From the sequence record PX246730.1: a stretch of DNA of 64,000 nucleotides. The stretch is one strand, 5' to 3'. The translations under genes were made by a program, and so were the position numbers. The notes beneath the pieces were generated by a model. The model searched no databases. It saw nothing but the letters and a program-made list of their open reading frames with translations, and was not told where the DNA came from. Source of the DNA: a phage. This document shows positions 18,661 through 31,823 of the stretch, piece after piece (position 1 is the stretch's first letter; every line of letters begins with the position of its first letter).

Positions 18661-26661
<8,001 letters not shown>

Positions 26662-26663
26662 TA

Positions 26664-27836
26664 ATGGCAGTAGGTGAAATTCAAATTAGTGCCTTGCCTC
26701 AAGCAGCCTTACCAATTGACCTTAGTGATATCTTCCATCTTAAGCAGGGTATTGAGGATAAGAGATGTACTCTTGAGCAATTACTTGCTCCACACTCAAG
26801 CCTAAGAAATAACCCTCATGGTGTTACTAAAACACAAATTGGTTTAGATAATGTTATTAATGCTCTTCAGTTAGTTGCTGCAAATAACTTATCAGATATT
26901 GTTGATGTATCTGAGGCAAGAGCAAATCTACAGATTATGTCTTCCGAAGAGGTCAATAGTCTTGTTCAACAGCATATTAATGATAAGAGTAACCCGCACA
27001 ATACAACTAAGGCACAGGTCGGGTTGAGTAATGTCCAGAACTGGACAACATCTAACCTTTATAATGAAGATGCAGATAAGTACGCTACAGCAAGAGCAGT
27101 AAATAACTTGTACAAGGCTGTTCAGGCTTCTTATCCAGTAGGTACTATCCATCTTTCTATGAACTCTGCAAACCCTTCTACATATTTAATTTGTGGAGGT
27201 ACTTGGGAGTTAGTTTCAAAAGGTAGGGCATTAGTTGGTTATGACTCTGATACAAGACCAGCAGGTTCTGTATTTGGTGCTTCAACTGTCACTTTGTCAG
27301 TTAATAATATGCCTCAACACTCTCACTCTGTATCTCTTAGTGGTGGTGGTCATACCCATAATGCAACTGTGTCAATTTCAGCTTTTGACTATGGGACTAA
27401 GACTACCAACTCTTTTGACTATGGAACAAAGGATACCAATACAACTGGTAACCATACACACAACGTATCAGGGAACACAAGTACAAATGGCACTCACAAC
27501 CATGATGTATACCCTAGAGAAAATGATGGTACTGGTAATGCTGTAGCTGACTCTGATGGTGGTGGTGCATGGAGAACATCAAGAACTTCTAGTGACGGTG
27601 CACACTCACATAGTTTTAGCGTTACATCTGGTACATCTGGTAACCACAGCCACTCTGTAGGTATTGGTGCTCACAGCCACACAGTCGGTATTGGTTCACA
27701 TACACACAGTGGTACTGTGACAGTTTCTTCTTCTGAGCATACACATAGTGGGAACACTAACAGTGTTGGTGGAGGTCAGGCAGTTAATATTGAACAGCCA
27801 TCCTTCGTACTATATGTGTGGCAGAGAACAGCTTAA
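26664..27836 (+). CDS. tail fibre protein with His-x-His repeat tip
   Basis: C-terminal repeats [55 protein letters not shown] resembling metal-binding HxH motifs of T-even fibre tips. Confidence 0.6.
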   Translation: MAVGEIQISALPQAALPIDLSDIFHLKQGIEDKRCTLEQLLAPHSSLRNNPHGVTKTQIGLDNVINALQLVAANNLSDIVDVSEARANLQIMSSEEVNSLVQQHINDKSNPHNTTKAQVGLSNVQNWTTSNLYNEDADKYATARAVNNLYKAVQASYPVGTIHLSMNSANPSTYLICGGTWELVSKGRALVGYDSDTRPAGSVFGASTVTLSVNNMPQHSHSVSLSGGGHTHNATVSISAFDYGTKTTNSFDYGTKDTNTTGNHTHNVSGNTSTNGTHNHDVYPRENDGTGNAVADSDGGGAWRTSRTSSDGAHSHSFSVTSGTSGNHSHSVGIGAHSHTVGIGSHTHSGTVTVSSSEHTHSGNTNSVGGGQAVNIEQPSFVLYVWQRTA

Positions 27837-27845
27837 TTTCTTTAC

Positions 27846-27868
27846 AGGGGCTTTATAGCCCCTTTTAA
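27846..27868 (+). terminator. intrinsic terminator
   Basis: GGGGCT-ttata-AGCCCC followed by TTTT. Confidence 0.6.
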
Positions 27869-27882
27869 GAGGAAAAATTATA

Positions 27883-30240
27883 ATGGCAGATTACAAGTTG
27901 AGTGAATTAAACTCAATTGATACAATTCGTTCAGATGACCTTCTTCATGTCAGGGTTAAAAAGAGACCTGAGATGTTGGGTGATGAAGACCGTCGAATGA
28001 CCTATCAAGACTTCTTAGCATCTTTTAAACTTGAAAGATTTGTTCAGATTGCTGGTAGTACTATGACGGGTGACTTAGGGATTGTTAAGTTACTTTATGG
28101 TGGTAAGGCAGTATTTGACCCTACAGGTTCTTCTGAAATTACTATTGGGGATGTTTTAAAGACTTTTAAACTTAACGCAAGTGGTCTTAAACTAACTATT
28201 GCAGATGCTTCAAGGTCAGCAACTGTTTATCATACTCTGAATAAGCCAAGTCCTAATGAGCTTGGTATGAGAACTAATGAAGAGAATGACGCAAGATATG
28301 CAAGACTTGCTGTAAATAATACCTTCAGGGGCACTCAAACTATTTTATCTGATAATGAAGCACTTATTGTTAAGAATAACACACAGGGTATGCCACTAGG
28401 TATTCGTGGTCGAGATGCAGATGGAGCTAATAGATGGTATTTTGGCAATGATAATAGAGACTCAAATACTCTTGTATTATCGAATGTAAAGACTGGTGTT
28501 TCAATTGGTATTCTTGAAAATTTGGTGTCAGTCAACAGAACTCTTCAAATTGCTGGTCAAGTTCAGCCTTCAAGTTTTGCTAACTTAGATGCTAGATACT
28601 TTACTCAGACGGCAGCTAATCAGAGATTTGCACAGTTAGCTGCTGATAATACTTTCAGAGGCGCGAACACATTTACCCGACTAAGTGTTTTCAAAAAAGA
28701 TGGTGAGGCGATTAGGCTACAGAATAACAATGCTACACAGCCATTGTACATTATGGCGATGGATAGCGAAGGTGCCAAAAGATGGTACGTTGGTAATACT
28801 GATAGTAGTGGTAACGTAGTTCTAGAAAACTACAAAACTGGTGGAAAAATTACTGTAGGGACAAGTGTTAATATCAATAAAACACTAACTGTAACTGGTC
28901 AGGTTCAGCCTTCTGACTGGGCTAACATTGACTCTAGATACATTCCAGCAGCTACTTTGAGTAATCTTGCTAAACTCAGTGACATGAATACCTTTAGGTC
29001 TGCACAAATTATTACACAAAATGGTTCATTGTTGCGACTAAAAAACACTGTTCAGGATAATGAACTGTACTTGTCTGGTCATAATGCTGATAATGTGAGA
29101 AGGTGGTACATCGGGACTGCTGATAGAACACACCCATCTAGATTCATTATCCACAATGATAAAACTGTGACCACTATTTTTATGGAAGATGACTTTTTGC
29201 TAAATAAAACTGTAAGGATTACTGGTCAAGTTCAGCCTTCAGATTGGGCTAACATTGATGCAAGATACTACGGTAAATCAGAAACTGATTCGAAGTATTT
29301 CTGGTCAGCATCCAGAGGTCTGGTAGAAGAGACTGAAGGTGGTGTAGCTTGGAATCAACCTTCAGGAATCTATCTTGAGACAACTGAGACTGGTTGGTCA
29401 AACCGCTTAGTCTTGCACCTGTTTGCTAATACGACAGCATCGACACCATCTGCACAATTAAGGTTTGATTACAGAAATGGTGGAATGTGGTATAGAACAG
29501 CCAGAGATGCAAATGGTTTTGAGATTGAATGGTCTAGGGTTTACACTAGCGCCGACAAACCAACCCCTGCTGAGATTGGTGCATACACTAAAGCAGAAAC
29601 TGACCAGAAGATTGCACAGGCAATTAGTGACTCCACAGACCTTAATAAAATCTATCCAGTAGGTATTGTAACATGGTTTAATAGTAATGTTGACCCTAAT
29701 ACAGCACTACCTGGGTTAACTTGGACGTACCTTAACAATGGTGTTGGTAGGACTATCAGGATTGCAGCAGCAAATGGTTCAGATGTTGCTACAACTGGTG
29801 GTTCAGATTCTGTGACGTTAGCTGTTGGTAACTTACCATCACACACCCATAGTTTCTCTGCAACTACTTCATCTTTTGATTATGGTACGAAGGGAACTAA
29901 CACTACGGGTGGACACACTCACTCTGGTAGTGGTTCTACTAGCACAAATGGTGAGCACACCCACTACATTGAGGCGTGGAACGGTACTGGTAGAGGTGGT
30001 GATAAGATGTCATCATATGCCGTATCATACAGGACGGGTGGGAGTTATACTAATGCAGCAGGGAACCACAGTCATACTTTCTCTTTTGGTACTAGTGGTG
30101 CTGGTGACCATTCCCACTCTGTAGGCATTGGTGCTCACAGCCACACAGTTAGTGGTAACACTGGTGGTACAGGTTCTGGTTCAGCATTTAGTGTTACTAA
30201 CCAGTTCTACAAGTTAATGGCTTGGGTAAGAACTGCTTAA
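27883..30240 (+). CDS. long tail fibre protein with internal repeats and HxH tip
   Basis: 785 aa; three repeats of (I/V)(A/T)GQVQPS(D/S)(W/F)AN(I/L)D(A/S)RY; C-terminal HxH block and terminal WVRTA matching 26664 protein (WQRTA). Confidence 0.6.
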
Positions 30241-30319: not shown

Positions 30320-30514
30320 ATGCCTACAATCCTAGCAATTCTTCTAAAAAATCTAGGTAGCTTCTTCTGGAAACTCATTTTATCCCTTCTAAGTGAATAC
30401 ATGATTGAGAAAGTGTTCTTTAAGCTTGCAAGATACCTTGCGAGTAAAACAGACACACCTATTGATGATGAGTTCGTAGATAACTTAGAAAAAGCTTTTA
30501 AGGGGGAGAAATAA
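30320..30514 (+). CDS. small hydrophobic protein (64 aa; holin-like?)
   Basis: N-terminal hydrophobic segment; position after fibres. Confidence 0.35.
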   Translation: MPTILAILLKNLGSFFWKLILSLLSEYMIEKVFFKLARYLASKTDTPIDDEFVDNLEKAFKGEK

Positions 30515-30886
30515 ATGAAGTGGCTAGAGGAAGCTTTTAAAAATAATATTGGTGCAATTGTAGTTGGTATTTTTAGTGTTATTGGGATGTATACCACGAT
30601 GCAAGTCTCAAGTGGTAAGCAAGAAGTATCTGTCACAACAAAGTTACAGCAGCTAGATAATTATTCCAAAAGTAACTATTCAGCTATTCGTGATTTGCAG
30701 TCTGACATGAGACTGATTCAGCTAGGGATGGAGAACCAGAAAGTTCAGTTAGAGAATGTTAAGGGTGAAAACGCAAAACTTACCAAAACTCTTGATAAAT
30801 TCTCTGACAGTGTGAATAATCTGGCTCAATCAGTATCAGCCCTCCAAGCTATTACTGAGAAGAACACAAAGAATACTGAAAAGTAA
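30515..30886 (+). CDS. membrane-anchored coiled-coil protein (123 aa; spanin-like?)
   Basis: TM segment IGAIVVGIFSVIGMY followed by heptad-rich region. Confidence 0.35.
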   Translation: MKWLEEAFKNNIGAIVVGIFSVIGMYTTMQVSSGKQEVSVTTKLQQLDNYSKSNYSAIRDLQSDMRLIQLGMENQKVQLENVKGENAKLTKTLDKFSDSVNNLAQSVSALQAITEKNTKNTEK

Positions 30887-30893
30887 AGTTTAA

Positions 30894-30925
30894 GGCTCCT
30901 TTTGATGGGAGCCTTTTTTGTTTTT
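30894..30925. terminator. bidirectional intrinsic terminator between convergent gene blocks
   Basis: GGCTCC-ttttgat-GGGAGCC flanked by A/T runs on both strands. Confidence 0.65.
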
Positions 30926-31823
30926 ACTTACCTACTGACAAAGGCGCTTCAATCTTTCCTGCATGTTGGTAGTTGTTAATTCCACCGATAAAATCACTTG
31001 CAGTAAGGTGTTTTAAATCACTTAGAGTGTTAAGCTGCACACCAATCTCAAAAGTAGGTGCATGGAACTCTTCATTATTCATCAGTTCATAAACCTGTTT
31101 CATATGGTTCTGATAAATCTGAGTATCTCCAAAGACACCTATCAAGTACCGTGGAGTGTATCCAGTCATCTTGCAAAGAACTTCCAGAATAAAACCATAA
31201 GATGCAATGTTAAACGGAAGTCCTAAAAAGGTGTCTACAGAACGTTGATACCATTGTAAGTCAACTTCACCTTCGTTAGTGATATAAATCTGAAACAGAA
31301 CATGACAAGGTGCTAAAGCCATTGAGTTAGCTGCAATATCTGCTGCATTCCAAGCATTAACAAGCATGTAACGGTCTGTGATATCACCTTTCATCTTCGT
31401 TACTAAGGTCTCTAACTGGTCTACAACACAACCATTATGACCTTCAAAGTTTCTCCACTGAACCCCGTAGATTCTCCCACCTGCATCCTCTAACCAGTCT
31501 TGTTCAGAAGAATAGTTAGAGCTTAACCAGCGTTTAAAATCATCTGACCAGATAGTCCAGCGTTCCCCATCATTTTCACCCCAAGTGCGATAACGGAGTT
31601 CACCAAGTTTATTCTCGCCATTCATGAACCATAAAGCTTCCCCAATAACTTGCCGTGTAAACACCTGTTTAGATGTTAAGAGTGGGAAACCAGTTCGCAT
31701 ATCAAAACGAAACTGTGGTGGAGCAAATGCAGAGATAACATCTCCAGTTCGTGTAGTACGCAGTTCACCAACGGATAAAACATGGTTCAGGATATTTTTG
31801 TAACTCAAATCAGCTTGTGACAT
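30924..31823 (-). CDS. thyA: thymidylate synthase
   Basis: motifs LAPCH, QRSVD, GLPFNIASY. Confidence 0.85.
   Translation of the reverse strand: MSQADLSYKNILNHVLSVGELRTTRTGDVISAFAPPQFRFDMRTGFPLLTSKQVFTRQVIGEALWFMNGENKLGELRYRTWGENDGERWTIWSDDFKRWLSSNYSSEQDWLEDAGGRIYGVQWRNFEGHNGCVVDQLETLVTKMKGDITDRYMLVNAWNAADIAANSMALAPCHVLFQIYITNEGEVDLQWYQRSVDTFLGLPFNIASYGFILEVLCKMTGYTPRYLIGVFGDTQIYQNHMKQVYELMNNEEFHAPTFEIGVQLNTLSDLKHLTASDFIGGINNYQHAGKIEAPLSVGK

Follow-up and report, generated by a model that had tools for sequence, protein, structure and literature searches.

Two adjacent tail-fibre genes

The subject of this analysis is a pair of adjacent tail-fibre genes in a 64,000-nucleotide (nt) stretch of phage DNA (record PX246730.1), referred to here as the window. 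The window is part of a Felixounavirus (Ounavirinae) genome of the VpaE1 type, collinear with VpaE1 23370-88403 at 92-97% DNA identity. The two genes are open reading frames (ORFs) on the + strand, 26664-27836 (390 amino acids, aa) and 27883-30240 (785 aa), with 46 nt between them. A query of ~4 kb comprising both genes and their flanks matched 262 phage records, nearly all of them Felix O1-like phages of E. coli or Salmonella, and the top matches carry the annotation tail fibre for both genes.

Three + strand ORFs of 489, 285 and 100 aa precede the 390-aa ORF, in that order. The first of these matches the Bas63 'Wedge protein 2 (gp023)' of PDB 9NDY (E 0). The third (26359-26661, +; phrog_4141) matches over its full length chain S of the same entry, the Bas63 'LTF platform protein (gp025)' (E 3.7e-65), and would be the baseplate attachment point of the long fibre. 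In Bas63 the gene order is wedge 2 (gp23), wedge 1 (gp24, 285 residues), long tail fibre (LTF) platform (gp25), short fibre (gp26) and long fibre (gp27) (PMC12609058). Because the upstream genes match Bas63 wedge 2 and LTF platform and the gene order is the same, we assign the 390-aa protein, by position and family, as the short tail fibre (STF), the counterpart of Bas63 gp26 and VpaE1 gp74, and the 785-aa protein as the LTF, the counterpart of Bas63 gp27 and VpaE1 gp75. The family assignments are phrog_2097, tail fibre, for the STF (E 1.6e-137) and phrog_4277 for the LTF (E 0, full length). Database proteins are up to 96% identical to the STF, whose gene is 92-100% identical in DNA to that of VpaE1, with 97.3% nt identity to gp74 in the 3' half. 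For the LTF, the closest full-length protein in a search among 5.8 billion proteins is only 82% identical. Both fibres are known components of virions, by mass spectrometry for VpaE1 (PMC4690856) and by cryo-electron microscopy (cryo-EM) for Bas63 (PMC12609058).

Tip architecture and histidine pairs

The C-terminal parts of both proteins are homologous to the tip of T4 gp37 (PDB 2XGF), with phmmer E values of 1.9e-28 for STF residues 146-362 and 1.8e-50 for LTF residues 651-764. An initial annotation of this locus had likened the two ends to the metal-coordinating tips of T-even fibres, and this likeness is borne out: the His-x-His (HxH) pairs of both proteins align with the Fe-binding pairs of T4. 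According to PMC6957217, the source for T4 gp37 domains and mutants throughout, the T4 collar domain D10 consists of residues 811-881 and 1010-1026, and D11 (882-1009), with the head at 932-959, is inserted in it. The chain turns back at the head, and its last 17 residues (1010-1026) rejoin the collar (PMC6957217). We transferred these borders to both tips through the alignment; those of the STF are approximate.

By this homology, three identical chains would make up each fibre, and the last 200-240 residues would fold as a T4 gp37-type tip, that is, a collar into which a long six-stranded β needle is inserted. Each chain would go out to a small head, turn, and return to close the collar, and this return would explain why both proteins end in W-x-R-T-A.

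All segments of the STF lie on the + strand. Its N-terminal part (aa 1-153, 26664-27122) shows helices in an AlphaFold2 (AF2) monomer model and, by comparison with Bas63 (PMC12609058), would comprise a baseplate-binding region and a helical shaft. This part contains two NPHxxTKxQxGLxNV motifs, at aa 50-64 and 110-124 (26811-26855 and 26991-27035), which probably correspond to the motif described for Bas63 as 'triple alpha-helix and turn' (PMC12609058). The N-terminal portion of the collar follows (aa 154-217, 27123-27314); it matches PF21939 (Gp10_C; E 3.1e-17, 64 bits versus a cutoff of 27) and is modelled with a predicted local distance difference test score (pLDDT) of 70-91. In a Foldseek comparison, the collar model superposed on the T4 gp10 C-domain (2FKK) with a root-mean-square deviation of 2.9 Å over 89 columns (probability 1.0, E 0.023). 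The outgoing needle strand (aa 218-280, 27315-27503), with HxH pairs at 219, 230, 264 and 278, aligns with T4 gp37 882-931, and the returning strand (aa 311-368, 27594-27767), with pairs at 314, 328, 337, 346 and 359, aligns with 960-1009. Between them lies the head (aa ~281-310, 27504-27593), a predicted receptor-contacting turn that is unlike the heads of the LTF and T4 and has pLDDT <50. The collar-closing segment (aa 369-390, 27768-27833), ending WQRTA, aligns with T4 residues 1010-1026 of D10 (PMC6957217), and W386 and R388 within it are invariant among 33 homologues. A tandem FDYGTK duplication (aa 241-256, 27384-27431) goes with an extra HxH level in the STF.

The LTF, likewise encoded on the + strand throughout, begins with a region (aa 1-135, 27883-28287) that would contain the baseplate-binding domain and a first module, a role assigned from Bas63. 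Conservation here is 0.83-1.00 among 31 homologues, and a Pfam search with these residues gave no match. Past the shaft, the N-terminal portion of the collar (aa 588-652, 29644-29838) is 37% identical to that of the STF and is invariant in the genus (conservation 0.96-1.00); it scores slightly under the PF21939 cutoff of 27 (24.7 bits, E 5e-5). The needle strands are much closer to T4. The outgoing strand (aa 653-694, 29839-29964; HxH at 654, 678 and 692) shows 88% identity to the T4 gp37 stem-up and includes a PF03335 Phage_fiber repeat at 687-700, and the returning strand (aa 723-765, 30049-30177; HxH at 729, 743 and 752) shows 84% identity to the stem-down. The head (aa 695-722, 29965-30048), the predicted receptor-binding tip, is a T4 allele, with 23/28 residues identical to T4 gp37 932-959. 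The collar-closing segment (aa 766-785, 30178-30237), ending WVRTA, aligns with the end of T4 D10, and its last 20 residues are invariant among the 31 homologues. As far as alignment can tell, both tips thus appear to contain the collar, the needle on both strands and the returning C-terminal strand.

Dense HxH repeats had been reported in both proteins, and the counts sustain this. The STF has nine pairs and the LTF six, and none of 20,000 shuffles of either sequence reached these numbers (STF mean 1.41, maximum 7; LTF mean 0.38). The same held in 20,000 shuffles when the tip regions alone were shuffled. The common context is G-x-H-[ST]-H-[ST]. In the alignment, the Fe-binding pairs of T4 gp37, seven in number, each have a single counterpart in the fibres, except that the STF carries a further pair on both the outgoing (aa 230) and the returning strand (aa 359), and that in the LTF the outgoing strand is shorter and the returning strand is missing its collar-proximal pair. 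Judged from these alignments, needle length varies through matched changes on both strands. At each HxH level, the three chains together would hold a single axial iron ion, as in T4, giving six expected sites in the LTF and nine in the STF, compared to seven in T4; such axial sites would lock the trimer. All 12 of the HxH histidines in the LTF are invariant among the 31 homologues. In the more divergent set of 33 STF homologues, conservation is complete or reaches at least 90% for 9/18 (H219/221, 264, 314/316 and 328/330 are listed). This invariance is indirect evidence, consistent with an Fe-bound homotrimer that would have six histidines at each HxH level.

The two fibres align with each other over ~200 aa (42% identity, E 3e-21). 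Identity is highest in the stems (66-76%) and lower in the collars (35-37%); in DNA, the two genes share a His-box stretch of 49 nt at 90% identity. The STF ends in FVLYVWQRTA and the LTF in [10 protein letters not shown], closing MAWVRTA. The initial annotation called the C-termini near-identical; this is true of the last pentapeptide, with 4/5 positions equal, and not of the last ~20 residues, which are only 35% identical. It also took the WxRTA ends for the receptor-binding ends. That assignment fails, as the corresponding T4 residues, 1010-1026, belong to the collar D10 (PMC6957217). Because the chain reverses at the head, WxRTA would be a collar strand. By analogy with T4, receptor contact is predicted to be made by the heads in the middle of each HxH region, and these differ between the two fibres. 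They are the least conserved blocks of each family (0.25-0.38 for the STF head among STF homologues).

Two other accounts of these similarities deserve consideration. The initial annotation envisaged duplicated receptor-binding tips, which in its simplest form means a tandem duplication yielding two redundant tips of the same specificity. The ~200-aa alignment, the closeness of the stems and of the His-box DNA, and the shared WxRTA ending all point that way, and they do argue for a common origin of the scaffold. However, the heads hardly align (8/20 identities in gapped columns between STF and LTF, and 7/20 between STF and T4), the collars are far less similar than the stems, the needles are unequal in length (nine versus six pairs), and the N-terminal parts (150 aa in the STF, 590 aa in the LTF) share no significant similarity, the best local alignment having an E value of 0.45. 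Moreover, the Bas63 fibres bind different baseplate proteins, the STF wedge 2 and the LTF the LTF platform (PMC12609058), and STF and LTF each have their own conserved set of orthologues across the subfamily. We therefore regard redundancy as very unlikely. The sequences indicate instead that the tip scaffold is paralogous and that the specificity-determining part is not duplicated. The other account would make the HxH pairs a compositional, low-complexity trait of Gly/Ser/Thr/His-rich fibres with no role in metal binding. The HxH region is indeed repetitive and compositionally biased, and the metal role is assigned by homology. But the tip histidines lie almost exclusively in HxH pairs (18/19 in the STF and 12/12 in the LTF, 30/31 together), those of the LTF are invariant even though their neighbours vary, and half of those in the far more divergent STF set are invariant or nearly so. 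Furthermore, the pairs match the Fe-coordinating pairs of the solved T4 tip, in which H929A and H931A are lethal (PMC6957217). A purely compositional origin is thus extremely improbable.

The paralogous, T4-like tips deduced here resemble those of Bas63. The cryo-EM study of that phage (Sci Adv 2025) describes both of its fibres as having a T4 gp37-type collar, a needle with HxH pairs, whose counts it gives, and a head (PMC12609058). The Bas63 LTF also has six pairs, the head-proximal one being H693/H695, compared to H692/H694 here. The STF differs in having nine pairs, compared to seven reported for Bas63 (a comparison by published description), and the LTF head differs in being a T4 allele without the HHxH of Bas63. 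T4 gp37 D10-D11 (2XGF) shares the collar, the inserted HxH needle, the head and the chain reversal. The differences from T4 gp37 lie in the number of pairs (six and nine versus seven), in the collars, which are 24-35% identical to that of T4, in the remainder of each fibre, which is unrelated, and in the lack of a gp38 chaperone gene. In addition, the fibres here are single polypeptides on the baseplate, whereas T4 gp37 forms the distal half of a four-protein fibre.

The modular shaft of the long fibre

The LTF shaft includes three tandem units of 100-114 aa, in agreement with the ~100-aa triplication described initially. Unit 1 (aa 136-235, 28288-28587, +) matches PF20744 with E 1.1e-12 and 48.2 bits, unit 2 (aa 236-349, 28588-28929, +) with E 1.5e-15 and 57.4 bits, and unit 3 (aa 350-458, 28930-29256, +) with E 2.3e-12 and 47.2 bits; the cutoff is 21.7 bits, and the whole LTF scores 171 bits in 3 stretches. 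BLAST of the whole LTF against itself gave the identity hit only, and it was unit-against-unit BLAST that revealed the repeats (E 2.5e-26 for units 1-2, 4.2e-20 for 1-3 and 5.6e-23 for 2-3; 36-44% identity). These units are the confident parts of the LTF model, with pLDDT 70-81, 76-89 and 76-86, respectively (70-89 overall), and each is modelled as a β module of five short strands preceded by a helix. Pfam calls PF20744 the 'gp37 trimerization region', although a search with T4 gp37 gave no match to it at E <= 0.01. The name probably stems from Felix O1-like 'gp37' annotations and can mislead.

The initial annotation placed the motif GQVQPS(D/S)WAN(I/L)D(A/S)RY at the centre of each unit. The motif is present, in the forms [30 protein letters not shown] and [15 protein letters not shown], but copy 1 has SF in place of (D/S)W, and the motif marks the border between units. 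At the DNA level, a 66-nt repeat family was found at 28534, 28876 and 29203, with 68-82% identity and spacings of 342 and 327 nt. Because DNA likeness survives only in this 66-nt stretch around the junction motif, the triplication is ancient rather than recent. A CRISPR-like (clustered regularly interspaced short palindromic repeat) or other non-coding origin of the DNA repeats was considered and rejected, as all of them are in frame inside the two ORFs.

Beyond the third unit lies a distal shaft module of the phage Mu S-fibre type (aa 459-587, 29257-29643, +), which matches PF12604 (gp37_C) over aa 485-585 (E 3.2e-14, 53.3 bits versus a cutoff of 22.5). Against the Mu tail fibre (8JU3), phmmer gave E 5.5e-21, aligning LTF aa 479-578 with Mu protein S 331-427, and Foldseek gave E 3.7e-5. 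In Mu S, the module precedes another receptor-binding end, whereas here the collar and needle come next. The PF20744 units have a structural relative in the T4 gp34 rod, found by Foldseek with the low-confidence LTF model (4UXG and 5NXH, E ~1e-4). The same comparison with gp34 is drawn in the Bas63 paper (PMC12609058). BLAST of the units against T4 gp37 gave no match.

A hidden Markov model built from the three units detected no convincing extra copies in the LTF, the STF or T4 gp37 (best E 0.04). The only other trace of repetition is a KP(S/T)PxE(L/I)G linker after aa ~120 and ~560 (E 1.9e-4). The Bas63 LTF contains five gp34-like β-helix repeat domains (PMC12609058). Hence, three of the five Bas63-type modules are sequence-similar units, and the other two cannot be recognised as copies by sequence. 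Together with the flanking modules, the three units would, as trimeric β modules, make up the shaft and determine how long the fibre is.

Among the 31 LTF homologues, the module bodies are variable (conservation 0.33-0.67) and the junction motifs conserved (0.8-0.9). The shaft at 28327-29557 (aa ~150-560) is the sole long stretch of the window without a megablast match to VpaE1. Its identity to NBEco005, REP8 and VpaE1 is 33-67%, and that to phage TH10 over 28909-29200 is 95-97%. Hypervariable bodies between conserved [15 protein letters not shown] junctions suggest that modules are shuffled one at a time, or that selection acts on the surface of the shaft. The LTF is thus a domain-wise mosaic. 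In Bas63, too, the LTF shaft consists of repeated β modules, with shaft and head variable across the genus, and the authors of that study note LTF mosaicism (PMC12609058).

A T4 gene 37 cassette, receptor recognition and assembly

The likeness of the LTF tip to T4 is concentrated in a cassette of ~285 nt that encodes the distal needle and the head (29866-30149, +) and shows 92.3% identity to T4 gene 37 in megablast (AF158101, 159245-159516). At the protein level, LTF aa 661-757 and T4 gp37 898-994 are 89.7% identical over 97 aa, the differences being S911T, S930T, V941R, N944D, I951V, A955T, N959Y, S976G, T990S and A994S. The borders are sharp: identity is 25-30/30 per 30-nt block inside the cassette and ~33-50% in the flanks. 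On the 5' side the border falls at the FDYGTK repeat, and on the 3' side at the His-box [16 protein letters not shown]. The DNA encoding the latter motif is present in both fibre genes as 49-nt copies that are 90% identical (27637-27685 in the STF and 30101-30149 in the LTF, both +), making it a candidate crossover site. An overlapping segment of the STF gene (27650-27701) has a 90% match to a Tequatrovirus fibre gene over 52 nt.

Because the cassette is bounded by the FDYGTK and His-box repeats, exchange between T4 and Felixounavirus fibre genes through recombination at these conserved motifs is probably the most economical explanation. Recombination at His-boxes is reportedly a mechanism that Tetart et al. 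proposed in 1998 for the adhesins of T-even phages. A T4-type head occurs in ~20 of ~250 Felixounavirus records, with 86-100% protein identity. Carriers include NBEco005 (100%), REP5-12, VpaE1 (97.9%), L27, IME338 and AYO145A, and E. coli B or BL21 served as isolation host for several of the phages with this head.

Apart from exchange, the T4-like stretch might be thought an artefact of chimeric assembly or T4 contamination, or else a product of convergence. T4 is a frequent laboratory contaminant, and the patch is short with abrupt borders, as an artefact might be. Yet its identity to T4 is 92% and not 100%, it is in frame between flanks that are invariant in the genus, and the same allele recurs in the ~20 independently sequenced genomes mentioned above. 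The presence of the allele in independent isolates, together with the imperfect identity, rules out an assembly artefact, and 92% nt identity across 272 nt is beyond the reach of convergence. Taken together, these alternatives to gene exchange have a negligible probability.

The T4-like cassette leads to a testable receptor prediction. Ten residues at which alanine substitution kills T4 (PMC6957217) are all kept in the LTF: H929, H931, I933, N937, G938, G940, G942, G943, S947 and Y949. Only V941R, N944D, I951V, A955T and N959Y differ in the head, and four of these positions, V941, N944, I951 and N959, tolerate alanine in T4 (PMC6957217). Because the LTF keeps all of the residues essential in T4, its head would, by analogy, most likely recognise the glucose-terminated truncated lipopolysaccharide core of the E. 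coli B type. Such a preference would fit the restriction of VpaE1 to E. coli B (PMC4690856). For host-range work, these data argue for aiming at the mid-sequence heads (STF aa ~281-310 and LTF aa 695-722) rather than at the C-terminal residues. The cassette itself may be viewed as a natural swappable adhesin module bounded by His-box repeats.

Considered jointly, the evidence is best explained if the region encodes the STF and LTF of a VpaE1-like Felixounavirus with T4 gp37-type tips, and we hold this to be very probably correct. The data show directly which genes these are, their homologies and conservation, the repeats and where the cassette ends; trimerisation, iron binding, receptor specificity and the mode of crossover are deduced. 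Several points nonetheless weigh against it or against parts of it. The AF2 monomer models have a mean pLDDT of 61.7 (STF) and 46.9 (LTF), with values below 50 at STF 258-330 and LTF 579-785, that is, in both needles. Because the needles and heads are modelled at this level, the models are silent on HxH geometry, and their usable parts are the STF collar and the three LTF β modules only. The Foldseek search with the STF model returned no 2XGF match, only the gp10 collar, and that weakly (E 0.023). As a consequence, the tip assignment stands on sequence homology, and so do the predicted trimer and metal binding of both tips. Likewise, the equivalence to Bas63 gp26 and gp27 is drawn from gene position and the published description. 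With respect to the receptor, VpaE1, whose head is 98% identical, does not infect K-12, where T4 uses OmpC (PMC4690856); hence the difference in outcome must come from the five substitutions in the head or from the second fibre. Finally, folding of the T4 gp37 tip requires gp38, together with gp57A (PMC6957217), and a tblastn search with T4 gp38 found no homologue, the best E being 0.23 in the 64-kb window and 0.32 in the complete VpaE1 genome; gp57A was not searched for.

With no gp38 homologue, assembly must differ from that of T4, a point that concerns assembly and not the fold. Relatives of gp38, among the 15 of 348 matches listed, come from T4-like phages and from phages resembling P2, Mu or lambda. 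It is possible, although we put this at slightly below an even chance, that a free-standing ~285-nt needle/head cassette moves between Straboviridae and Ounavirinae at the His-box and FDYGTK repeats and folds as a functional iron-bound trimer without a gp38-type chaperone. If so, dependence on gp38 would be a trait of the T4 context and not of the needle. Two small + strand ORFs follow the LTF gene, 30320-30514 (64 aa, phrog_402) and 30515-30886 (123 aa, phrog_4038). Both have hydrophobic N-terminal segments of the membrane type, and the 123-aa product has a faint Rz-like spanin match (E 0.009); they may encode lysis or membrane functions instead of chaperones for the fibres.

Much of this arrangement has precedents. 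A 2015 paper (Viruses; PMC4690856) described homology between the T4 gp37 adhesin and the C-termini of VpaE1 gp74 and gp75. The present fibres resemble those proteins closely, with 97% DNA identity in the 3' half of the STF gene and 97.9% protein identity in the LTF head, and differ in the LTF shaft. Published work on the genus already covers the presence of two fibres, their T4-like HxH tips and the modular repeats of the shaft. Two modest points go beyond the published accounts consulted, namely, the sharply bounded cassette of ~90% identity to T4 and the absence of a gp38-type chaperone. The VpaE1 paper gives 54% identity over the whole tip, describes the proteins as 'only distantly related' and does not single out the cassette (PMC4690856). 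The significance as a discovery is therefore small, and the usable residue is practical.

A scan for promoters and terminators within the two-gene region gave background levels only. Downstream of the small ORFs, a strong terminator-like hairpin (30892-30915, +; 9-bp stem with 5 GC pairs, followed by a T-run) ends the rightward structural operon. It adjoins thyA (30924-31823, –) and hence the convergent thymidylate synthase and dihydrofolate reductase genes, and the sign of the GC skew switches at the same place.

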